A stretch of 64,000 bases of DNA from NCBI GenBank assembly GCA_038727705.1, contig JAVYVJ010000001.1:543924-607923 (forward strand). Reading direction: 5' to 3'. This stretch comes from Zestosphaera sp. (GTDB taxonomy: Archaea; Thermoproteota; Thermoprotei_A; Sulfolobales; NBVN01). Shown here in pieces: positions 12,133 to 28,043 of this stretch. Each line of letters begins with the position of its first letter. Positions within the stretch are counted from its first letter, which is position 1. Under the pieces are notes generated by a model. It was not told the origin of the DNA and made no database searches. It saw only the letters and a list, made by a program, of their open reading frames with translations. The position numbers and the translations under genes were made by a program.

Positions 12133-15100
12133 CTTTCAGTCTTTTCTTATTGCTTCCGATGCGAACCGACACGAATATCTGAACCGCGTAGCTCTCTGCA
12201 ATCAATCTTTCAGTCTTTTCTTATTGCTTCAGACCCGTATGATAAATGGGTTGAGTGAGTTGAGAAGGATGTCTTTCAGTCTTTTCTTATTGCTTCTATA
12301 TAAGCATGACTGGTCGTTAGTAGAGAAAAACACATTTTTTGACCCTTTCAGTCTTTTCTTATTGCTTCTCATCTATTAACTGATCCCAGGAGATTATTCC
12401 GGCTTTGTATTGTTCTGTTAAGAGATTCCTTTCAGTCTTTTCTTATTGCTTCACCGAATTTCGCTCAGAACAAACCTGCTTCACCAGCTTTCAGTCTTTT
12501 CTTATTGCTTCGAACAAGATATTCGTACACCGGTGTAAACCTGGTGCCGCCGCGACACTCGCGGCTGAGCTCGCCGCGAGCCGCCAGCGCAAAGTGTAAA
12601 CCTGGTGCCGCCGCGACCGACGCTTTCAGTCTTTTCTTATTGCTTCATGAACGTGATAGATGATTCAGTCAAGCACGCGCTGGTTCAGGGAGCAACATAT
12701 GACTTTCAGTCTTTTCTTATTGCTTCTCATCATCGACTTTGATCATTGCCGAAACGTAATAGCTGCACTCGCCAACACTAATTGCTTTCAGTCTTTTCTT
12801 ATTGCTTCCCTGCCACTATCCGAACATGCGGCCTGCTCAGCGCCGCAATCACTAAATTCTTTCAGTCTTTTCTTATTGCTTCTTAAGTAATTACGTGAAG
12901 CTAGTCCCGGGAGTCAGGAAGACTTTCAGTCTTTTCTTATTGCTTCTATTTCAACCTCTTCATAGTCCGTGTAACTAGGTAAGTCCTTCATGAATGTGTC
13001 CACCTTTCAGTCTTTTCTTATTGCTTCATATATCCACTAAGAACTGAGGGCACTCAACCTCATACTTTCAGTCTTTTCTTATTGCTTCATTTCGTGTCGT
13101 TTTAGCGATCCTGATGTGAACATACATGTTTATATCGACTTTCAGTCTTTTCTTATTGCTTCAAAGCAAAATCACAGCTCTCATAACTACGAGACCTCTT
13201 TCAGTCTTTTCTTATTGCTTCCTCACCTCGCAACGATTGCGTTTCTGAACTTTTTGCCCGTCGAAACCAAGATGACGTCTTTCAGTCTTTTCTTATTGCT
13301 TCACGCCTTGCGGATATCGCGCGACGCGTCCAGACGAACGCTGACTGACCTCTTTCAGTCTTTTCTTATTGCTTCGTATATGATCATGCTCGACAGACGT
13401 TGGGCGTACATCATTCTTTCAGTCTTTTCTTATTGCTTCAGTGCCGATCGTCACAACACATCACGCGACGCTCAATCCTGCGAATCCGTATCAGACGTTA
13501 GCGGACATGCGTGGCGGCGTTGCAGTGTATCATTACCTTTCAGTCTTTTCTTATTGCTTCATTGACGGTGTTCATTGACGGTGGCAGTGTTCGTGTGCTT
13601 TCAGTCTTTTCTTATTGCTTCTCAACACCAGCAGCGTAGTCACCTGAAGCTGCGCTCTTTCAGTCTTTTCTTATTGCTTCACAGACTCGTCGTCCGGCGA
13701 GCCGCGAATCGCGTAGACTTTCAGTCTTTTCTTATTGCTTCGCCACTGACAGCTGAACGACTAAACAAGTCGAACAGCCTGCCCGCCTGACTCTTTCAGT
13801 CTTTTCTTATTGCTTCCCTACACACTAATATACGACGTGCTAGTAAGCTCAGGATGTAGGGGGACTGACTTTCAGTCTTTTCTTATTGCTTCTAAGTTAA
13901 GAACGATAAGCGCTTTCAGCCTTTTAGTCAGGACTTTGAGGAATTTGCTTTCAGTCTTTTCTTATTGCTTCTCAATGCGCCAATGCTCTGAGCCTTGATG
14001 TCCACAGCCAGGGACGCTATTGTCTGCTTTCAGTCTTTTCTTATTGCTTCACTGGAGTAAATGATTCCCCCCTTAACAACCCCCCTACTAATTTAGAAAA
14101 AGCTTTCAGTCTTTTCTTATTGCTTCAGTCTTTTAAGTGTTATCTCCGTCTCCTCCAGCAGTTCCCTTAAGTACTTGATATCTTTCAGTCTTTTCTTATT
14201 GCTTCTTACGTCCTCGTTCATGCTCCCAGTAGAGCTTGCCGCATATTTTGCTTTCAGTCTTTTCTTATTGCTTCAAGGACATGTCCTCACATATGTCGGC
14301 AGGTCGGACGTGGCCGAGAGCAGTAGATTCCTTTCAGTCTTTTCTTATTGCTTCAGAAAAAGAGGAATTTAAGATTTGCGCAACGCGCCAGCAACCTTGA
14401 ATATCACCGTGCCCAGCAACAGAATTGAGAGCATCTCTTTCAGTCTTTTCTTATTGCTTCACTCTCAGATCTTCAAGAGTTCCTGTCAGGTAGTTCAGCT
14501 TTCAGTCTTTTCTTATTGCTTCTGACCCGAGCAAGCCAGTCAAGATCATCGAGAGGAAAGGTCAAGGTATTTTTCTGCAGTTCTACGACGTAGAGGGGAG
14601 ACTGCATGCTTTCAGTCTTTTCTTATTGCTTCGAATACCGCATTGTCCCCAGAGCTGACCGTCAGAGCGATGCCGCCCGGCAAATCTTTCAGTCTTTTCT
14701 TATTGCTTCAGTTAAGCTTTTACGCATCAATAACCGATGCTACGAGTGCCAGAAACGTGGTTCTTTCAGTCTTTTCTTATTGCTTCACCACAACCGAGGA
14801 GGAAATAGACGTAGTACCTGACGACGTATTAACGCGCACCTTTCAGTCTTTTCTTATTGCTTCGCATTTAGCGTTAGAAGATGCAGACGATGTGTTAAAG
14901 CTTGAGATAGACTTTCAGTCTTTTCTTATTGCTTCACTCGTAACTGAGTTCGAGAAAAGAAATAAGTTTGTGGGGGGCTGGGCAGTCACTTTCAGTCTTT
15001 TCTTATTGCTTCCGTTATTGTTGGTGTTCACACTCACATTGCTGACCACGTTAGAAGCGATGTTATCCTTTCAGTCTTTTCTTATTGCTTCGGATTAGAC

Positions 15101-15659
15101 AAGACCCTCATTGTAATAAGCTACGTAAAACACGGCACAAGACTTAGCCTACTTTCAGTCTTTTCTTATTGCTTCCTACAGCCTACTACGTGCTTGGATT
15201 GCCCGAGGTTGGATTACTACCCACTTTCAGTCTTTTCTTATTGCTTCTATAGTGTCCAGTTTCGGTATGGTAGTCTTTTTCTGTACCCCGCTCTTTCCTC
15301 TTCTTTCAGTCTTTTCTTATTGCTTCGCAAACAACTTCGCCGAGAAGCGGCGATACGTCGACACAGACTTTCAGTCTTTTCTTATTGCTTCTCCTGAGTC
15401 AGTTGAAAGGCGATTGGCGCGGTCTAGCGGTGGCGTTAGTGCCGAAGAGCGTGAACTTAAAGATCTTTCAGTCTTTTCTTATTGCTTCTCACTTACTCGC
15501 GCGGTGCTCAGTCGAAAGTCGTTGAATCATTGAGTGCGGTCGGCGACTCGGCGTTCACTTTCAGTCTTTTCTTATTGCTTCTCCTAACATACTCCTCCAG
15601 GGATAGGTACGCGCAATACTCACACGACCTTCCAGCTTTCAGTCTTTTCTTATTGCTTC
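12133..15659 (-). CRISPR. CRISPR array 1: 46 identical 24-nt repeats and 45 inter-repeat segments, transcribed on the minus strand (leader at 15660-15728)
   Basis: The plus-strand repeat is CTTTCAGTCTTTTCTTATTGCTTC, which is GAAGCAATAAGAAAAGACTGAAAG in crRNA sense. The hand-counted inter-repeat lengths from 12157 rightwards follow. 50,42,48,60,35,111,56,58,50,40,57,37,50,35,57,49,40,97,37,35,37,51,52,55,55,52,55,45,56,82,38,86,53,53,53,48,53,55,60,48,55,41,73,69,54. Confidence 0.97.
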
Positions 15660-15728
15660 CTGTCATTGTTTTGTGCTGGTTGTTTATAAATTTTTGTTGA
15701 TCGATTCCGGAAAATCCATCAAGCCTCC
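15660..15728 (-). promoter_or_regulatory. CRISPR leader 1 with TATA box (TTTATAAA, 15683-15690) and palindromes ATCGAT / TTCCGGAA (15700-15712)
   Basis: A 69-nt AT-rich segment lies between the cas1 stop and the first repeat. The TATA box is about 24 nt from the first repeat. The sequence is the exact inverted copy of leader 2. Confidence 0.75.
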
Positions 15729-16718
15729 TTAGGAACCGGATGTTGGGTCATAGATATAGGGCTCGTATTTAAGTTTCTTTAAGATGGAGTCTTTAAATTT
15801 TCCTATATCTCTTAGCGGTAATATCCATATCGACTTTCTGTTGTAGAATCTTTCTGCTTCCCGTGAGAGTCGGTTGTAAAGGTGTCCAACTAAGATCTCG
15901 ATCGTTTTAGGGCTTAGCATCCTGGAGCCTCTTAGCGTCTTTAACTTTGTTTTTCTGCTTGCTTGTATAACGCTATGCACGGCTAGTGGCTTGAAAATTT
16001 CCGATAAGTCATACGTTAGTGACACTCGCCCACTTCTTAGTGCGTGTATTAGCCCGTAGAAGGGATCTAGTCCTACGGTAACTATCGACTTGGTTATAAT
16101 TCCGTAGAGTATGGCGTAGAGGAAGTCTATCGAGGAGTTTATAACATCACCTCTTCGTGGCTCTCTGCCCGTGAACCCATATTCTGGCAGTATGAGGTTA
16201 GTGGCGACATTCCAGAAGTATTTAGAGCCAACTGCCTCCAGTTTCCGGAGCTCATCAATGTTGTTGGTCTTTTCTACGAACTCTAAAACCTCTAATATCT
16301 TTATTTTTACGTCCTCGTAATCCTTCATCAAGTCTTTATAGTACTTGTACTCGTATCTCAGAACGTTATATAGACCCCTAATCTTTGAGTATATGATTGA
16401 CCTGGCATACATCGCCCTGCAGGCCTCGTCTGAGAAGCACCTGTACTGCACTTCTCTAATGTTGATGGTTCCAACCTGAACGACATCATAGAGAACTCCA
16501 TAGGTGTCCAGCTTTCCCGAGATGAACACTATCGGTATGCCGTTCGAGAGAAGAGTTATCACCGCTGAAGACGTTACCAGAACTCTCTCACCAACGACAA
16601 TTACTAGCTCTAGGTCCGGTACGGATGCCTCCACGCTGTTACCTTCTTTGTCTGATACAAGGATATTGCCTTCCTTCCTATATATCTTCGATGTTCCCTC
16701 AACGACCAGTATCGTCAT
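15729..16718 (-). CDS. cas1: CRISPR-associated endonuclease Cas1
   Basis: 329 aa with a Cas1 pattern (N-terminal beta domain, EAVGSKYFW, GLIHALRSGRVSLTYDLSEIFKP). It is adjacent to the leader. Confidence 0.92.
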   Translation of the reverse strand: MTILVVEGTSKIYRKEGNILVSDKEGNSVEASVPDLELVIVVGERVLVTSSAVITLLSNGIPIVFISGKLDTYGVLYDVVQVGTINIREVQYRCFSDEACRAMYARSIIYSKIRGLYNVLRYEYKYYKDLMKDYEDVKIKILEVLEFVEKTNNIDELRKLEAVGSKYFWNVATNLILPEYGFTGREPRRGDVINSSIDFLYAILYGIITKSIVTVGLDPFYGLIHALRSGRVSLTYDLSEIFKPLAVHSVIQASRKTKLKTLRGSRMLSPKTIEILVGHLYNRLSREAERFYNRKSIWILPLRDIGKFKDSILKKLKYEPYIYDPTSGS

Positions 16719-19929: not shown

Positions 19930-20638
19930 TGAGCGGCACCCTGAATCTTATCCCGCTACGAGACTCTAGCGTGGCTACGACTGGCTCGTTGAAGTATGCC
20001 TTTGCAATTACGTTAGAATTTGGAACGCCTCTTCTCACGGTCTTAGTGTCCAGCAACGCAACGTAGGAGGCTGGCTCTACACCATCTCTTAGGAGATCCC
20101 CAAGATTGACTGGGTCGGTTGGTCCACTGGTACGACTCTTGATTTCGGCTTCTTCACACTTAACACTGAAGATTCCCTGCCTCTTGACGCCAACTCTAAC
20201 TGCATTAGGTATCTTCACATTGGCTGATCTAGCCACAAGTACTGTCTCGAATTCCGAACCCGGAGCGAAGTATAGGTGTACCACATGCCACGGGTACATG
20301 GACTTAGGTTTGGGTTGCACTATCTCTACCGCTCCTTCGCCCTTAATATTCAGTAACATCCTCTTGAGGTTAACCCTGCGGGGTCTAGCGGGATAGACGT
20401 AGAGCCTCTTCTCTACCTCGTCAAGCCAATAGTAGTCTATTTCTCCTACCTCTATGGCTGAGGACGCTAGCGAGGCGTGTAGTAGCCCGCTGAAGCCGTA
20501 CATCAGCGAGTAGTTGTGAAGGTACGGCTGGGGCTTGTAGACGGCGTAGGATACGCCCATCACGTTGGCGTAGCCGACTGACGACGAGTATGTTAGGTAG
20601 TCGCAGAGTCTCAGGGTGCAGATGTATGTTTTCATCAT
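19913..20638 (-). CDS. cas5: Cas5-family protein (Csc1/Cas5-like), by position and size
   Basis: 241 aa between cas7 and cas3', with a 17-nt overlap with cas3'. It has an RRM-like N-terminal pattern. There is no diagnostic motif that I can verify by eye. Confidence 0.55.
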   Translation of the reverse strand: MMKTYICTLRLCDYLTYSSSVGYANVMGVSYAVYKPQPYLHNYSLMYGFSGLLHASLASSAIEVGEIDYYWLDEVEKRLYVYPARPRRVNLKRMLLNIKGEGAVEIVQPKPKSMYPWHVVHLYFAPGSEFETVLVARSANVKIPNAVRVGVKRQGIFSVKCEEAEIKSRTSGPTDPVNLGDLLRDGVEPASYVALLDTKTVRRGVPNSNVIAKAYFNEPVVATLESRSGIRFRVPLIDLRH

Positions 20639-20665
20639 TTCGCTGATGCCCCTTCTTATCCTAGG

Positions 20666-21763
20666 TTACTTGGCGGTGATGTAGCTCTTTACGGCGTCTA
20701 TATAGTTCCTGGAGTTTGTCCAGAGCTCTTTTACTAGGTTAGCGTCAAGTATGTTTACGTTCTTCAGCTTAGCTAGGATATCCTCGGTTACCTCAACGAC
20801 TCCTGCTCCGGTGGCGTACGATACACTTCTTACGTATTCTAGGAGCTTCCTCCGAGCCTCTGCCTCGTTTGCTTCGCCTGCCAACCTCTCGGTGGCTTCG
20901 TAGGCTGAGCCGACTTCAAATAGGTCGGCTACGGTGGCTACGGGTACGACCTTGAGTGTCCCCCATAAAGATGTCCTCGCTCCTACTCTAATAGTTCTCG
21001 TCAGGAGCCAAAGGACGTACAGTAATTCTACTGGTGATGACATGAACAACACTACTTTACCTACGAAGAGTGTGCCGGGCTCTACGAAGGTCTCGGCGAA
21101 CAGGGCGCCTGTTCTCGCCTCCTCTCCCTCTGCTTTCTGACCTTCTTTAATCATTATCGTTGTGTAGGTAATCTCGTCTACGGCGTTCCCCGTCCTTCTC
21201 TCGTAGCTGGGAGTTAATGCATATGCCGAATCTCCGACAAACCTGCTGGCTAGGTTGTAGTTGGCGGCAGCACTCGTAGCACCCATCAATACGTCAGTTG
21301 GACACTTCATGCACCTGCCGTGCATTACGCCTTTTCCTTCGCCGGCTAGGCCTGGTGATATAGAGCAGGATGCTAGGAAGTCGTAGTTTTGATCGCCTAT
21401 AGCCGCCTTGATGACGCTATTATGTAACTCCCACTGTCTTCTCAGTAGCTGCATGAACTCCCTTAGGTACACAGCCTTCAGCTTCCTGAAAATGAGTGTT
21501 GGAACAGCCTCGCCGGCTGCTTCGCTCAGGATTATGTCGTCTTCTCCTTCCGTCCTCAGTATCATCCTGTCCTCTACTCTCCCGATCCAGTATATCGTTA
21601 TATGCTTTGCAACGGGCTTTACTGATTCTGTTCCCCCCGTGTATGTGTGTAGGTATGGTTCTATTTTCTTGAAGTTGTCGTCCCCTAACACTTCCCTAAG
21701 TTTTTTGATAGAGTTCTCGTATGGGGATTTGACTTGGGGTTGGGTCTGGGACATTGATTTCAC
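20666..21763 (-). CDS. cas7: Cas7-family backbone protein, Csc2-like (type I-D-like) with a Cys/His cluster
   Basis: 365 aa carrying C-x14-H-x2-C-x2-C (SCSISPGLAGEGKGVMHGRCMKCPTDVLMGA) followed by RTGNAVDE. It lacks the Csa2 (I-A Cas7) signature segments that I remember (LNG..S.GN, ISGEALAH). Confidence 0.6.
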   Translation of the reverse strand: MKSMSQTQPQVKSPYENSIKKLREVLGDDNFKKIEPYLHTYTGGTESVKPVAKHITIYWIGRVEDRMILRTEGEDDIILSEAAGEAVPTLIFRKLKAVYLREFMQLLRRQWELHNSVIKAAIGDQNYDFLASCSISPGLAGEGKGVMHGRCMKCPTDVLMGATSAAANYNLASRFVGDSAYALTPSYERRTGNAVDEITYTTIMIKEGQKAEGEEARTGALFAETFVEPGTLFVGKVVLFMSSPVELLYVLWLLTRTIRVGARTSLWGTLKVVPVATVADLFEVGSAYEATERLAGEANEAEARRKLLEYVRSVSYATGAGVVEVTEDILAKLKNVNILDANLVKELWTNSRNYIDAVKSYITAK

Positions 21764-21768
21764 CTCTT

Positions 21769-22203
21769 TTAGGATTTCTTCTCAAGCGGTTCAATGGAGA
21801 CGCTTGAAAGTAGCCCAGTCGCAAGTCCTATCAGTAGAATCCGCATGTTTTTCAGCATTTTGAAGGCTCCGACCGGGTTTATCGACTTCTGCATTGCTAC
21901 GTAGTCAACCAAGTTTATGGCCGCTTCCTTTACCGTATTTCTCTCCTGCTCGTCGGCGAACCCGTAGTGCCTCGCGAACAAGTCCATTATCTTGGCAACA
22001 GTATCTGCCTTACCGCCGGAGCCCGCTAGGAACTCCTCTAGGGGGTTGAATATCCTTGCTATGTGGTGTCTTGACACTCTCTCCCCCCTGGTCTTACTCC
22101 TGATGTAGTTAGCTATAGTCTCCAGCGGCTTTACGTACCTCATCTCGCTTGGGTAGATCTGTAGTCTTATCCTGGACTGGGTTTGGGGTTGGGGCACGGA
22201 CAT
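21769..22203 (-). CDS. putative Cascade small subunit (Cas11/Csa5-like), by position
   Basis: 144-aa, mostly helical ORF between the large subunit and cas7. There is an SD-like GGGGTGGGA upstream of its ATG. The call is positional only. Confidence 0.45.
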   Translation of the reverse strand: MSVPQPQTQSRIRLQIYPSEMRYVKPLETIANYIRSKTRGERVSRHHIARIFNPLEEFLAGSGGKADTVAKIMDLFARHYGFADEQERNTVKEAAINLVDYVAMQKSINPVGAFKMLKNMRILLIGLATGLLSSVSIEPLEKKS

Positions 22204-22215
22204 ACCATCCCACCC

Positions 22216-22231
22216 CTTTTCTTATTGCTTC
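22216..22231 (-). repeat. 16-nt partial CRISPR repeat (GAAGCAATAAGAAAAG, the 5' two-thirds of the repeat) at the large-subunit/small-subunit gene junction
   Basis: Plus strand CTTTTCTTATTGCTTC at 22216-22231 is identical to positions 1-16 of the repeat in crRNA sense on the cas coding strand. It overlaps the large-subunit TGA stop (22230-22232). Confidence 0.85.
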
Positions 22232-24275
22232 ACATGAGCTTCCTAAGCATGTACGAATAAACGTCCAGAGCCGGGGCACCAGTGGTTATGAGCCCACTCT
22301 TCGTGAACCTGGTCTTACCTATCTTTACCTCTGCCTCATCTAGGTTCATGACGTACGTCCTCAGTTGCTCATATAGTATTCTCCTCAACCTCCTTGTCCT
22401 GCTCCACTCGTTTCTCTCCCTAGCTATCTTCAGCTCTCGTACGAAGTGGAGTACGGACTCCTCCATAACGACGTCGCTAACCTCCATCTCTATGGGTAGA
22501 CCGCTCCAGGGTGGTGGCATGCTCAGAGCATTGGTCGTCAGTACGAGACTCCCGCCAATGTAGTACCAGAGGTCTAGTGCTGTTAGCAGGTCGCCTTTTC
22601 CAAGGCGTCCACGCTCATCCGATGTCTTAACTATTATTCTGCTGGAGACGTAGTCTGGTATAACCAAAGGTTTTGTCTCTTCCTTTTTCTTTCTCTTCAG
22701 TCCAAGAACCACGTATTCTCTGGCGACCTCTCTGACTATCTGCAGCAGGTCCGTGCTCATAGCCGGGTAGTAGATTATGTTTGATGCCCACATGCCGTCA
22801 AAGAAGGATGTTGTAGCTGGAAAGATTATTGATTCGTACTCGCACACTGGACAGATGGGCACGCTGTCCGAGAAACCCTCTAAGGCTCTGTAGTCATCTG
22901 GTCTACCCTGTCTGTCTGGGTGGAATAGCTCGGAGACGTTTATATCCAGAATACGCTTGAATCTATCAAGGTATGCTCGCAGGGTTCTTGTTTTCGAAAC
23001 CCTCTCTCGACAGATAACACATACCGCTCCCTCTTTAGGTCTCTTCTGGGCACTTCCTGTTATACCGAAGTACCTGATGCTAATTGTTTTCTCAACCACT
23101 TCTTTCACATCGCTAACGTCAACTTCTGCTGACAGCATCCTCTTAACCAGCTTATCCTTAGTCCTCTCTACCAAGTTGCTTAAGTCTTGAGAACCGAACT
23201 CATTGAGGTGGTTGGAGAGGTTTTTGATTACTTCTTGAACGTCTTTACCTCTGATGAACCCCAGCTCAAGTTCGCTGAGAGCTTCTCGAAGGTTCTCTTT
23301 TACGCTACCGAGTGTTTTCGCATAGGTGAGCACCGACCATATAACTAACAGTACCTTGTCTGCTGGTGTGGTATAGGTTCTGAAGGTCTCTTCTATATCG
23401 CTGATGCTGAGCTGACGTAGGTTTGGTAATGAACTTATAACCCGGCCGGTGTTCAGCTTCTTATCACCAGCGTGAACGATGCCATCAACAGACCTTAGGC
23501 TTGCAACCTTAGGCTTACTGGTGGTGGTCGGTGCTAGCGCTTTTGTAACTTCGTTAGAAATGTAGTTAGCTAGACCGTCGTATAGTTTCTTAATATCGTC
23601 GCCTCCGATGCAACTTCTAGATAAGTACAGAGAACCTGTCGGAGTAGAGACCAGCGGTGTGAGCTCGGCCTCCATAAGTATTTCATTAAGTTTTTCAGCA
23701 ACTATCGCGATAATAGGTCTCTGCTTACCTATAACCACAGGGACTAGGTGGTGCTTCACGCCAAGCTTACTCAGCGTCTCTCCGACTTTATCCATAACAT
23801 ACGCTATGTTCCAGCTCTCTTCCCCACCGGTTAGGTAGTCCCCGAGCCTAACGAACTCGGCAATAACTTGAAGTCTTCTCGGGAGCCCACCGCTCTCCAG
23901 CTTCGAAGCTACCTCCAGAGCATCGTCAAAGCGCCCACCGAGATACCCGTCTAAAACATCGTATAGTCTCTCATTAGCAAAGACCTCGTCTGCTTTTTCC
24001 TTAAGAATCTGAAGACTTAGCCTCATCTTTTCGTAATCGTGTAGGAGACCAGCTAGAAAAGCTGTTGCCTGTTCGTACTCGCTCATCTCGGAGAACTCTG
24101 CTAGTCTAGCCGCTATGAAGGCTGCGCCGAAGAAGTGCTGAAGACCTGAAATAAGATATGATTTAGGATTGCAAGGAAGTGCATAACCGTATACACCAGT
24201 TTCTATCTTATTTGGGATGAGCTTCGTGATGTCACTCGCAATGGCTTCTCTCAGCTCTAAAATGAAACTCTCCAA
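22230..24275 (-). CDS. Cascade large subunit (Cas8/Cas10d-like) with an N-terminal HD-nuclease-like motif and a zinc finger
   Basis: 681 aa with a TTG start. The N-terminal QHFFGAAFIAARLA...AGLLHDYEK resembles Cas3 HD motifs I and II. The central CVIC...x~60...CPVC forms a zinc-ribbon pair. It is the first gene of the interference operon. Confidence 0.6.
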   Translation of the reverse strand: MESFILELREAIASDITKLIPNKIETGVYGYALPCNPKSYLISGLQHFFGAAFIAARLAEFSEMSEYEQATAFLAGLLHDYEKMRLSLQILKEKADEVFANERLYDVLDGYLGGRFDDALEVASKLESGGLPRRLQVIAEFVRLGDYLTGGEESWNIAYVMDKVGETLSKLGVKHHLVPVVIGKQRPIIAIVAEKLNEILMEAELTPLVSTPTGSLYLSRSCIGGDDIKKLYDGLANYISNEVTKALAPTTTSKPKVASLRSVDGIVHAGDKKLNTGRVISSLPNLRQLSISDIEETFRTYTTPADKVLLVIWSVLTYAKTLGSVKENLREALSELELGFIRGKDVQEVIKNLSNHLNEFGSQDLSNLVERTKDKLVKRMLSAEVDVSDVKEVVEKTISIRYFGITGSAQKRPKEGAVCVICRERVSKTRTLRAYLDRFKRILDINVSELFHPDRQGRPDDYRALEGFSDSVPICPVCEYESIIFPATTSFFDGMWASNIIYYPAMSTDLLQIVREVAREYVVLGLKRKKKEETKPLVIPDYVSSRIIVKTSDERGRLGKGDLLTALDLWYYIGGSLVLTTNALSMPPPWSGLPIEMEVSDVVMEESVLHFVRELKIARERNEWSRTRRLRRILYEQLRTYVMNLDEAEVKIGKTRFTKSGLITTGAPALDVYSYMLRKLM

Positions 24276-24367
24276 TCTTTACACCAAAATAAGATTTGGA
24301 ATGAAAGTTTATAAATCTTGTTTAAAGATATACATTAGAATGAGGGAGAGAATTAGGGCGTAAAACT
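24276..24367. promoter_or_regulatory. bidirectional promoter region between the interference operon and csa3 (TATA boxes TTTATAAA at 24308-24315 and TTTAAAGATA at 24321-24330)
   Basis: AT-rich 92-nt divergent intergenic region. The palindromic TTTATAAA could serve the minus-strand operon (TTG start 24275). The second TATA is about 40 nt upstream of the csa3 ATG. Confidence 0.55.
24283..24307 (+). repeat. degenerate CRISPR-repeat-like element in the cas promoter (AATAAGA-tttg-GAATGAAAG)
   Basis: 24288-24294 (AATAAGA) equals repeat positions 6-12. 24299-24307 (GAATGAAAG) matches repeat positions 16-24 at 8/9. Block spacing is 4 nt instead of 3, and the first 5 repeat positions do not match. 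Confidence 0.45.
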
Positions 24368-25049: not shown

Positions 25050-25970
25050 ATGGAGAGACGTCTGTTCAAGGCTACTGTTACAATTGGAAGGAGTGCTGAA
25101 AAGCATTCAAAGAAACTAAGAGATTTAGAGGAAGTATTTACGGGTAAGCTCGTGAAGTCTTTAATCATAGACGGTAATCCCCTGTTAAGGCAGTTCTTTG
25201 AGAAGATGTCTGGAAGCGCTCCTAAATTGGTCCACGTTTCCCCCCTCTACGTTGAGAGAGTAATCGATGGAAGAAAGCAGGTAAAGTGCATCTACGTATA
25301 CAGAGATGACAGCAATAATGAAATGGCGAGATATAGCTTCTATATAGGGCTAGTCGAATCTAATGCCATATACAGTCCAACCTCGGATGACGTGTATCAA
25401 GCTCTACTTAATCTATCCGGACACCATCGCTTTAAGGCTCAAGTTCTTGATATAGAGCTCATCTCCGTAGAAGAGATAGATGTGGTGAGAGATATCAAGA
25501 AAGTAGTCTCGGATCTTAGTAGACTAAAAAAGATGAAGATAGTGTTCTCTTCCCCCACACTTCTAAGAGACCCGCTCAGGAGAGGCAAGCATAAATCACT
25601 AACCCCAACACCCATAAACATCTTCTCCACACCAGTTTACATAAACCTGTACCTCACCGGTGCTCTTAGGTGGAAATCATTCATCAGAACACTCATCATC
25701 CTACATAGACTACTCAATGAGCCGTACTCTACTCACAAGACAACAAAGATTACGTGGGTAAGATACAGCAAAGACAAGAACCCCATACCCACACTTACAG
25801 GTTATGTAAACCTCTTCCTTAATGAATACTACTACAACCAACACGCAAAACATATAAACATAGGGTCACTTCTGGAAGAAACCCTTTCAACAATCCTCAC
25901 ACTAGGAACGGGAACATCAAGAGCAACAGGCTTTGGACACATCACGCTTGCAACACCATCCGGTTCCTAA
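25050..25970 (+). CDS. cas6: Cas6 crRNA-processing endoribonuclease
   Basis: 306 aa with a C-terminal glycine-rich loop (GTGTSRATGFGH) typical of Cas6. It is immediately upstream of leader 2. Confidence 0.85.
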   Translation: MERRLFKATVTIGRSAEKHSKKLRDLEEVFTGKLVKSLIIDGNPLLRQFFEKMSGSAPKLVHVSPLYVERVIDGRKQVKCIYVYRDDSNNEMARYSFYIGLVESNAIYSPTSDDVYQALLNLSGHHRFKAQVLDIELISVEEIDVVRDIKKVVSDLSRLKKMKIVFSSPTLLRDPLRRGKHKSLTPTPINIFSTPVYINLYLTGALRWKSFIRTLIILHRLLNEPYSTHKTTKITWVRYSKDKNPIPTLTGYVNLFLNEYYYNQHAKHINIGSLLEETLSTILTLGTGTSRATGFGHITLATPSGS

Positions 25971-26039
25971 GGAGGCTTGATGGATTTTCCGGAATCGATC
26001 AACAAAAATTTATAAACAACCAGCACAAAACAATGACAG
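25971..26039 (+). promoter_or_regulatory. CRISPR leader 2 with TATA box (TTTATAAA, 26009-26016) and palindromes TTCCGGAA / ATCGAT (25987-25999)
   Basis: A 69-nt segment between the cas6 stop and the first repeat, with the TATA box about 24 nt upstream of the first repeat. It is the exact reverse complement of 15660-15728. Confidence 0.75.
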
Positions 26040-28043
26040 GAAGCAATAAGAAAAGACTGAAAGACACAATACAATACATTACTATCCCGAAAAATATTGG
26101 ACAACATAAGAATAGAAGCAATAAGAAAAGACTGAAAGCATTTCTTGAGGTGAGTGCATGAGTTCAGGAGTCGTGAAGGACGTGATAGTGAAGCAATAAG
26201 AAAAGACTGAAAGTATAAAGCTCGGACTCATTGATTATCCCTCGCCTGAAGGCATATATTGCGAAGCAATAAGAAAAGACTGAAAGCGATCCACGGATAA
26301 TAGATGCATTCCGACTGAGTGTTGAACGGACAGGCGCCGAGCGAAGCAATAAGAAAAGACTGAAAGACTGGACACTATACATATTCAAGAATAAAAACAA
26401 CTTCACAATAAGAATAACGAAGCAATAAGAAAAGACTGAAAGGATTTTCTGTAGTGGCTCCAGACGCTCACCAGTGTTTGCGTCTATTACTATAGAGAAG
26501 CAATAAGAAAAGACTGAAAGAAAGAGGCCAACGCGGCGTATAAAAAGAGACTAGCGTACAAGAATTGGACGCGAAGCAATAAGAAAAGACTGAAAGGTGG
26601 ACTGGTCCTCTGGCTACACTGGGACTCGATAGACACCGCTAACAACGTGTGAAGCAATAAGAAAAGACTGAAAGTACTTCGACGGGGCTGTCGGAGGTAT
26701 ATTCGACGTGATAAGAAATGCCTGAAGCAATAAGAAAAGACTGAAAGACGACCCCAGGTCGTGCACGTGTCCGCCCATGTAGAGACAAACACGAGGGTCC
26801 CACCAGAAGCAATAAGAAAAGACTGAAAGAAAGTTGTTTGTATGTAGCTCTCTGTTTGTATGGGCTGGTTTACTGTAAGTTTACAGAAGCAATAAGAAAA
26901 GACTGAAAGAGTCCGTTCATTCCGACGGGCTTCGGCAGGACGAGCAAACATATGACGATGAAGCAATAAGAAAAGACTGAAAGAAGTACTTATCCACAAT
27001 CGTCAAGAGTCCGTCAAAGGAAGCAATAAGAAAAGACTGAAAGCTCTTACCAACACCGCGTAGCTGTGCTTCAAGCTCTGTCCTCGGAACAGAGAAGCAA
27101 TAAGAAAAGACTGAAAGGTACATCACCATCATTCACATTCAGCGTATCAATGGAGGGTAAGAGCTGATGAGCGAAGCAATAAGAAAAGACTGAAAGAGAA
27201 CTGGGATTACTGGGACCACTGAATTCAAACTTATTACCCCCATAGGGAAGCAATAAGAAAAGACTGAAAGGCTACGACGCGGGCCTCGAATCAATGTGCA
27301 AAGCAAATGGGATAGGGTATGAGGGAAGCAATAAGAAAAGACTGAAAGTGCTCTACTCCTCCACTTCTCAATTATCTTATCCAACGGAGAAGCAATAAGA
27401 AAAGACTGAAAGATCATTCATTCCGGACGGCGTCGCGGACGAGGTGTTGATGAACGACTGCCTCGAGCACGAAGCAATAAGAAAAGACTGAAAGTTCTGC
27501 GTCAGCGGGCACTAATTCGCTCTTTTTTCGAAGCAATAAGAAAAGACTGAAAGCGAGCCTGCTGCAAACAGGAACAACATGCCGGAGCTGAAGCAATAAG
27601 AAAAGACTGAAAGCTCTACACAGCGCTCAGCTCAGGAGCATCGGTCTACATTCCGACGGACGCGTGAAGCAATAAGAAAAGACTGAAAGATGATCAACGA
27701 TATGATGCCCGAGCCGCCTATAATGAAATAAAGTTTGCCGTCCGTCCTGAAGCCCGACACCACCGCCCCCGTCGGCAGACTGAGCATCGTGTCTAGGAAC
27801 GCCATGATGCGCTGAAGCAATAAGAAAAGACTGAAAGACGGACTGACTTCGCCGTAGCGGTTCTCGGGAAGAACAACGTTTCTGAAGCAATAAGAAAAGA
27901 CTGAAAGATGTATGAGAAGCAGTTCGGCAGGCGCGTCTCGTTCGGCGTCATTCTTTAGAAGCAATAAGAAAAGACTGAAAGATGGCGTGCGGCGTTCCGG
28001 TCGTTGCTGGATACTATACGAAGCAATAAGAAAAGACTGAAAG
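26040..28043 (+). CRISPR. CRISPR array 2: 27 identical 24-nt repeats and 26 inter-repeat segments, transcribed on the plus strand
   Basis: The repeat is GAAGCAATAAGAAAAGACTGAAAG. Hand-counted inter-repeat lengths from the leader are 51,51,49,56,52,54,52,54,49,58,56,50,36,50,55,50,54,40,58,35,36,52,124,46,50,38. Confidence 0.97.

Follow-up and report, generated by a model that had tools for sequence, protein, structure and literature searches.

The 64,000-nucleotide (nt) stretch of Zestosphaera sp. DNA analysed here, referred to as the window (assembly GCA_038727705.1, contig JAVYVJ010000001.1, forward strand, 543,924-607,923), contains a type I-D CRISPR-Cas locus with a stand-alone gene for a Cas11d-like small subunit. 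At the junction between the large-subunit gene cas10d and this small-subunit gene lies a copy of the first 16 nt of the CRISPR repeat. In this study, we show that this half-repeat is a conserved repeat-derived RNA signal and not a decaying scar. We propose, with a probability of roughly 0.6, that Cas6 processes the messenger RNA (mRNA) of the cas operon at such repeat-derived sites.

The cas10d-cas11d junction

On the minus strand, the 681-amino-acid (aa) open reading frame (ORF) of cas10d ends in the stop codon TGA (22232-22230). A 16-mer beginning inside this stop codon (22231-22216) is identical at 16 of 16 positions to nt 1-16 of the 24-nt CRISPR repeat. It is followed directly by GGGTGGG (22215-22209), the ribosome-binding site (RBS) of a 144-aa ORF that starts at ATG 22203. 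The 16-mer is present 74 times in the window: 73 copies belong to the arrays (46 on the minus strand, 27 on the plus strand) and the remaining one is the junction copy, designated site 1. Shuffling gave an expectation of 0.06 matches even when up to two mismatches were tolerated, and a scan of the whole genome (1,594,984 bases, 1.59 Mb) found no other copy outside the arrays. An earlier sequence-only reading had described the 16-mer as repeat nt 1-16 starting inside the large-subunit stop codon and had judged a chance match very unlikely. The first statement is borne out by the readout of the sequence and the second agrees with these counts. Chance was rejected as an explanation on three grounds, the genome-unique non-array copy, the shuffle expectation and the rarity of the motif in the genome-wide scoring described below. 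That reading had also noted that the 3' part of the repeat is absent, and this is correct. The repeat ends in ACTGAAAG, and its last 8 nt, the future 5' handle of the CRISPR RNA (crRNA), match the window junction at 0 of 8 positions; the handle is missing from the junction of all lineages compared except one of the same genus (G002), which keeps 7 of 8.

Pfam and NCBIfam matches name Csc2/Cas7d, Csc1/Cas5d, an HD-less Cas3' helicase, Cas4, Cas1, Csa3 and a large subunit with a weak HD match. The combination typical of type I-D, namely Cas10d with an HD motif, Csc2, Csc1 and HD-less Cas3', is therefore present (PF18320/TIGR03157, TIGR03159 and TIGR03158 in addition to the weak HD match). The 144-aa small subunit has no family match in Pfam or NCBIfam. 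Its AF2 model has a predicted local distance difference test (pLDDT) score of 90, and the top three matches in the PDB are S. islandicus Cas10d structures (6YES/6THH, TMq 0.62-0.64). Since this confident model matches only S. islandicus Cas10d, the protein is predicted to be a Cas11d-like domain for which a separate gene exists. In published type I-D systems Cas11d is produced by internal translation within cas10d, and this internal expression is conserved across I-D groups (PMC10212523). Here, the small subunit is instead a separate ORF of 138-163 aa past a stop codon, in the window as well as in 16 related lineages. Among the lineages compared, cas10d and cas11d are fused in G237 only.

A crenarchaeal-type cas6 gene lies beside the interference operon. 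The top PDB folds for the model of its 306-aa product are S. solfataricus Cas6 structures (4ILL/4ILM/3ZFV, E 7e-6 to 8e-5); this model is of low confidence (pLDDT 59) and was used for naming the family only, not for the mode of RNA binding. RtcB is encoded in the genome. Concerning csc2, the likely true start is ATG 21754, 6 nt past an AGGTGA RBS, and not the GTG given by the mechanical ORF list. The coordinates of all features are collected in Table 1.

Table 1. Features of the type I-D locus and RNA species mapped to it, in window positions.
Feature	Position	Strand	Remarks
Site 1, repeat nt 1-16 (GAAGCAAT-AAG-AAAAG)	22216..22231	-	cas10d-cas11d junction; overlaps last two bases of cas10d stop; conserved in 18 lineages
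RBS (GGGTGGG) and spacer of small-subunit gene	22204..22215	-	begins 1 base past putative cut; 5' end of head-to-tail RNA contig at 22215
Site 2, second repeat-like element (GAAGaAAT-CCT-AAAAG)	21766..21781	-	cas11d-csc2 junction; overlaps cas11d stop; directly before AGGTGA RBS and csc2 ATG 21754
Site 3, 16-nt stretch beginning GAAGCAA inside csc2	20860..20875	-	RNA 5' end at next base
450-nt RNA (RBS, cas11d ORF and site 2)	21766..22215	-	head-to-tail contig, circular or end-joined, run X2
208-nt RNA (csc2 3' end and 14 nt)	20652..20859	-	head-to-tail contig, run X2
cas10d, large subunit, 681 aa, HD motif	22230..24275	-	first gene of interference operon
Cas11d-like stand-alone small-subunit gene, 144 aa	21769..22203	-	predicted; fold match only
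csc2 (Cas7d)	20666..21763	-	start in mechanical ORF list GTG 21763
cas6, 306 aa, candidate nuclease	25050..25970	+	weak TIGR01877 match; G-rich loop near C terminus; adjoins csa3
CRISPR array 1, 46 repeats of 24 nt	12133..15659	-	
CRISPR array 2, 27 repeats	26040..28043	+	

Conservation of the half-repeat

Homologous loci were drawn from related genomes, GTDB contigs, a protein collection and metagenomes. In all 18 lineages whose arrays carry GAAGCAAT-type repeats, GAAGCAAT-N3-AAAAG stands directly before the G-rich small-subunit RBS, and there is no lineage in which the element does not adjoin this RBS. The proteins of these loci differ by more than one change per site, with branch lengths of up to 1-2.5 in the Cas10d tree. 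The motif is kept independently of the reading frame, as the end of the cas10d stop codon takes five placements relative to it (+2, +10, +13, +23 or -11). In G237 (contig C6, locus L041), which belongs to the same family and another genus, a fused large subunit of 837 aa reads through the motif, the RBS and a TTG without a stop. This fused form is nested among split forms in the Cas10d tree, and therefore fusion and split have interchanged within the group.

Across 12 deep lineages, the mean pairwise identity is 0.90 for nt 1-8 and 1.00 for nt 12-16, as compared to 0.33 for nt 9-11, 0.35 for the 30 coding bases upstream of the motif and 0.52 for the RBS. Because all of these columns share one tree, the contrast between blocks and flanks is reasonable evidence that purifying selection acts on a non-coding signal. 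In the CRISPR repeats of these loci, nt 1-8 and 12-24 do not change and nt 9-11 differ (AAG, CAA, CAG, GAG, GAA, TAG, TAT). Array repeat and junction element thus share their constrained and their free positions, as would be expected if one factor reads both. In G002, whose Cas10d is 43% identical, the junction keeps 23 of 24 repeat bases and the stop codon is a TAA inside the repeat (nt 8-10).

In another lineage (L024:3430-3480) two tandem repeat-like copies lie 5 nt apart at the cas10d-cas11d junction. The first overlaps a TAA stop as in G002 and the second adjoins the RBS.

A second element and other sites in the genome

The whole genome was scored on both strands (3.19 Mb) for matches over the 13 constrained positions. 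A full score of 13/13 was reached by 74 sites, that is the 73 repeats and site 1, and 12/13 by four sites, one of which is located 450 nt downstream of site 1 at the cas11d-csc2 junction (site 2). Cas11d is thereby bracketed by two half-repeats, much as repeats bracket a spacer. Site 2 scores at least 11/13 in 14 of the 17 lineages. In three of them (L002, L032 and L033) it is kept though the stop codon is placed elsewhere, and in L033 it shows T at nt 5, which is a peculiarity of the L033 repeat itself. A motif at the csc2-csc1 junction was sought in the relatives and none was found. A wider regulon was rejected, since the other genome sites at 11-12/13 are scattered, are not followed by an RBS and do not lie at junctions.

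The heptamer GAAGCAA is found only twice on the sense strand of the whole operon, at site 1 and at a stretch inside csc2 (site 3). In relatives the latter stretch encodes a conserved peptide and resembles the motif only loosely. We therefore rejected it as a conserved element and treat it as a fortuitous site specific to the window.

In the clade of the window cas11d and csc2 start alike (ATG TCC ... CC CAA CCC CAA; peptides MSVPQPQ and MSQTQPQ; 22170-22203 and 21725-21754, minus strand), so that the two junction cassettes remain alike for about 25 nt of coding sequence. This could stem from duplication, gene conversion or a shared signal. Outside the window, a solitary 12/13 site at G000:C2:441469 (minus strand) continues with ACT, as the repeat does, and could be a lone repeat in decay.

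Transcript ends at the repeat-like sites

RNA data came from one metatranscriptomic run of sediment (X2) that contains sequence of this organism, and we used its assembled contigs over 20600-24300. Two of these are cyclic. Record 11 has 480 nt, which correspond to 450 nt plus a k-1 overlap of 30, and joins 22215 head-to-tail to 21766 with a five-letter ambiguity, the shared AAAAG. Its 5' end is the base past nt 16 of site 1 and its 3' end is nt 16 of site 2. Record 9 (238 nt = 208 + 30) joins 20859 to 20652, and its 5' end is the base directly past site 3. Thus three of the four mapped ends (22215, 21766 and 20859; one run, contigs only) lie between nt 16 and 17 of GAAGCAA-type elements. This is the position equivalent to a Cas6 cut, because the cut made by Cas6 leaves the last 8 nt of the repeat on its 3' side and, in a 24-nt repeat, follows nt 16. 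A linear contig (record 10) ends at 20864, and depth over the last 370 nt of cas10d is almost none. A head-to-tail joint can arise from a covalent circle or when reverse transcriptase, at the 5' end of one molecule, continues on the 3' end of a second one; discrete RNA ends are marked in both cases. The DNA run X1, which does not cover the junction itself, shows no such joints. Two further RNA runs of the same study (X6 and X7) contain no sequence on the stretch and have no bearing either way.

Excision by the splicing endonuclease was considered as well and rejected. No bulge-helix-bulge-type helix between the cut sites was found beyond shuffled controls, the duplex energies of the flanks being -22.3 versus -24.5 +/- 4.3 and -25.8 versus -25.2 +/- 3.9 in shuffled sequence.

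Further observations at the locus and in a relative

Both arrays share one leader in inverted orientation (15660-15742 and 25957-26039). The leader identity extends into the last codons of cas1 and cas6, and both proteins end in SGS. In the divergent cas10d/csa3 promoter region (24283-24316, plus strand) a degenerate repeat-like stretch (AATAAGA ... GAATGAAAG) is located directly before a TTTATAAA box.

Upstream of cas6 in G002 (contig C58, L007:2784-3204), a 77-aa ORF (L007:2914-3147) stands between two solitary full-length repeats with one mismatch each, and another 55 nt or so upstream there is a partial repeat (nt 12-24). The gene as a whole has the position of a spacer. The product gives only a sub-threshold hint of a MerR-type helix-turn-helix, and as a query it found no homologue in the genome of the window.

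Discussion

The half-repeats are best understood, in our view, as cis-acting RNA signals derived from that part of the CRISPR repeat which lies 5' of the Cas6 cut, composed of GAAGCAAU as an 8-nt block, a linker of 3 free nt and AAAAG. According to this proposal, the interference operon would be transcribed from a promoter upstream of cas10d, and the locus's own Cas6, most likely the nuclease, would bind the mRNA at GAAGCAAU and cleave it at a set distance, after nt 16, as in the crRNA precursor. The upstream product would be a cas10d mRNA ending in the half-repeat. The downstream product of the cut at site 1 would begin with the cas11d RBS, the RBS region forming the 5' end of the processed RNA, and a cut at site 2 would likewise free csc2 and release cas11d as a 450-nt unit. 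The likely purpose would be to uncouple the amount of Cas10d from that of Cas11d and Cas7d and to tie effector expression to the abundance of Cas6. Each Cascade contains one Cas10d and several copies of Cas11d and Cas7d. The ends expected from such cuts, a 5'-OH and a 2',3'-cyclic phosphate, would be substrates of RtcB, which joins precisely these two groups, and ligation would yield a circle; the head-to-tail form of the contigs would be explained in this way because ends of this kind suit RtcB. The sequence, its pattern of constraint, the second site and the RNA ends are observed, and from these we infer the enzyme, the chemistry of the ends, the circularity and the effect on expression.

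Cas6 enzymes have been reported to cut 8 nt before the repeat end and to leave a 5'-OH and a 2',3'-cyclic phosphate, and P. furiosus Cas6 recognises an unstructured repeat by its first 10 nt, with changes in the linker being tolerated (PMC5965381). By analogy, Cas6 of the window probably reads the 5' block of the repeat. The part that it would read is intact at site 1, and nt 1-8 and 12-16 are kept in the 18 lineages; RNA ends are found at the repeat-equivalent position. As one of two meanings of the 16-mer, the sequence-only reading had offered a site in the polycistronic mRNA at which Cas6 or a repeat-binding protein acts. Conservation irrespective of reading frame, the second copy at the next junction and the RNA ends at the Cas6-equivalent position fit this suggestion, with Cas6 as the presumed enzyme.

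Several points weigh against Cas6 processing. The bases 3' of the cut are wholly unlike the repeat, whose 3' part is retained beside the cut only in G002. Cutting in L026 and in the fused G237 gene would leave a cas10d mRNA without a stop codon. Only three of the 12 lineages, namely the window, G002 and L033, have nt 9-11 of their own repeat at the junction, and we rejected strict co-variation of these positions as support. In G265, a very distant split I-D locus whose repeat differs in its 5' part, no fragment of its own repeat was found in the operon. The check that the sequence-only reading had proposed, conservation or co-variation at homologous junctions, has a mixed outcome: the blocks are conserved, nt 9-11 mostly do not co-vary and the locus with another repeat has no such fragment. 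AAAAG could be partly constrained as RBS context, and site 2 overlaps the conserved last codons of cas11d in the main clade. As to the RNA, the evidence consists of contigs at depth 4-10 from one metatranscriptome, with head-to-tail joints examined over 20600-24300. The 3' end of the 208-nt RNA at 20652, which follows ...ATAAGAAG, has no recognisable motif. End-to-end template switching on linear RNA gives the same joint, yet marks the same ends. Cas6 itself is a candidate for the nuclease.

Other explanations have to be weighed against these data. Cas6 or another repeat-binding protein might bind the element without cutting and block or expose the adjacent RBS, with feedback on the translation of Cas11d and Cas7d and with another cause for the X2 ends. 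Such a model suits the constant position of the element against the RBS, the lack of repeat likeness 3' of the cut site and the non-stop mRNA that cutting would generate in L026 and G237. We regard it as unlikely, given three RNA ends exactly between nt 16 and 17 of GAAGCAA-type elements, one of which lies inside csc2 where no RBS follows. It is rather improbable that a different endonuclease with a housekeeping RNase site, or an intercistronic initiation signal, is responsible and that the repeat likeness reflects common descent only. AAAAG with a G-rich RBS is a plausible initiation context, and each of the four mapped ends comes after AG and before a purine. However, no role in initiation is known for the 8-nt block, its 3-nt spacing is that of the repeat, with the same free positions in repeat and junction, and the other high-scoring motif sites of the genome are not found at junctions.

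The other meaning suggested by the sequence-only reading, a scar of recombination that divided the large- and small-subunit genes, would correspond to a functionless fragment left by recombination or mis-integration at a CRISPR repeat. An origin from a whole repeat is still plausible, considering the 23 of 24 bases kept in G002, where the TAA at repeat nt 8-10 serves as the stop, and the two tandem copies of L024. As an account of the present element, a neutral scar is very improbable: the blocks are at 0.90-1.00 identity versus 0.33-0.35 for linker and upstream flank at protein distances above one change per site, the motif stands in frame inside the fused G237 gene, the stop codon has moved round it at least five times, a second copy occupies the next junction and RNA ends lie at the motif. 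We give equally little credit to an element acting on the DNA level, such as a site for a Cbp1-type repeat-binding protein or for Cas1-Cas2, or to a Cre-type guide RNA with which Cascade would repress a promoter. In cas loci, repeat-like elements do often act as cr-like RNAs (PMC10120712), and Cbp1 is reported to bind repeats in Sulfolobales (PMC10883916). A cr-like RNA or mini-array has two units round a spacer-sized insert and retains the 5' handle that Cascade needs. Here, the handle is lost in all lineages but G002, and the two sites, 450 nt apart and thus not at spacer length, enclose a whole ORF. Moreover, all copies are on the sense strand of the mRNA and RNA ends map to them. The likeness to haloarchaeal Cre modules that the sequence-only reading had drawn does not hold, since both the handle and a spacer-sized insert are missing.

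Among known systems, we class the element with the repeat-like control elements and the Cas6 substrates outside arrays, with transcript evidence that is unusually direct though thin. Shmakov et al. (2023) catalogued repeat-like elements in cas loci, including type I-D guide mini-arrays between cas3 and cas10d or upstream, and reported nothing at the junction of large- and small-subunit genes (PMC10120712). CreA/CreT-type elements and mini-arrays are likewise repeat-derived, conserved, placed in the cas locus outside the array and engaged in control of their own system (PMC10120712). They differ in keeping the 5' handle and a spacer-like part and in acting via the effector complex on a promoter with a protospacer-adjacent motif, whereas only repeat nt 1-16 are present here, on the mRNA at cistron junctions, against an RBS and marking RNA cuts. 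A crenarchaeal Cas6 substrate outside the array was described by Sokolowski et al. (2014), namely ncRNA60 of Sulfolobus solfataricus, a non-CRISPR RNA with partial repeat likeness that is cut by Cas6-3 at the repeat-equivalent position (PMC4041471). In contrast to this small non-coding RNA, which is taken up by the Csm complex, the substrate proposed here is the cas operon mRNA and the product a whole cistron. Solitary repeat units, or RNA anti-CRISPRs, of phages (Camara-Wilpert et al., 2023; PMC10651486) likewise consist of one repeat copy away from an array and interact with Cas6 or Cas proteins; these are viral and inhibit immunity, while the present element belongs to the host cas operon and is vertically inherited.

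Internal translation of Cas11d from within cas10d was described by McBride et al. (2020; bioRxiv 10.1101/2020.04.18.045682; reviewed in PMC10212523). There too, several Cas11d per Cas10d are obtained from one transcription unit via an internal RBS and start, and the fused G237 gene has this very layout. In the lineages studied here cas11d is mostly a separate ORF, with a repeat-derived element before its start where a cut in the RNA seems to occur. In engineered operons, Qi et al. in 2012 are said to have insulated cistrons with synthetic Csy4 (Cas6f) sites. A Cas6 site between cistrons cuts the mRNA in that case as well and gives each cistron a defined 5' end at its RBS; the insulators are engineered and use a hairpin repeat, whereas the present sites would be natural and would consist of an unstructured repeat half-site. 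We found no report of Cas6 cutting a cas operon mRNA nor of a repeat fragment between large- and small-subunit genes in the literature covered, which mostly did not extend to subscription papers and is no proof of novelty.

The repeat-like elements known from cas loci guide effector complexes to promoters. The present case points to a different logic, in which half-repeats stand at cistron junctions and the nuclease that processes crRNA would cut the messenger into units starting with an RBS. The locus also documents that type I-D systems with a stand-alone cas11d gene exist. If Cas6 processing is true, the level of Cas6 would be linked directly to the supply of effector subunits. This would be a second answer, beside internal translation, to the need for several Cas11d per Cas10d in type I-D, and a natural counterpart of the synthetic Cas6/Csy4 insulators. 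The 450-nt RNA is, in addition, a candidate for a protein-coding circular RNA in archaea. We consider it possible, though doubtful, that cas11d is excised as a genuinely circular, covalently closed mRNA, which Cas6 would produce with two cuts and RtcB would ligate, and which would be translated from its own RBS. Should this hold, the circle would provide a hyperthermophile with an exonuclease- and heat-resistant template for its multi-copy small subunit, and Cas6 would set the stoichiometry of Cascade besides making crRNA.

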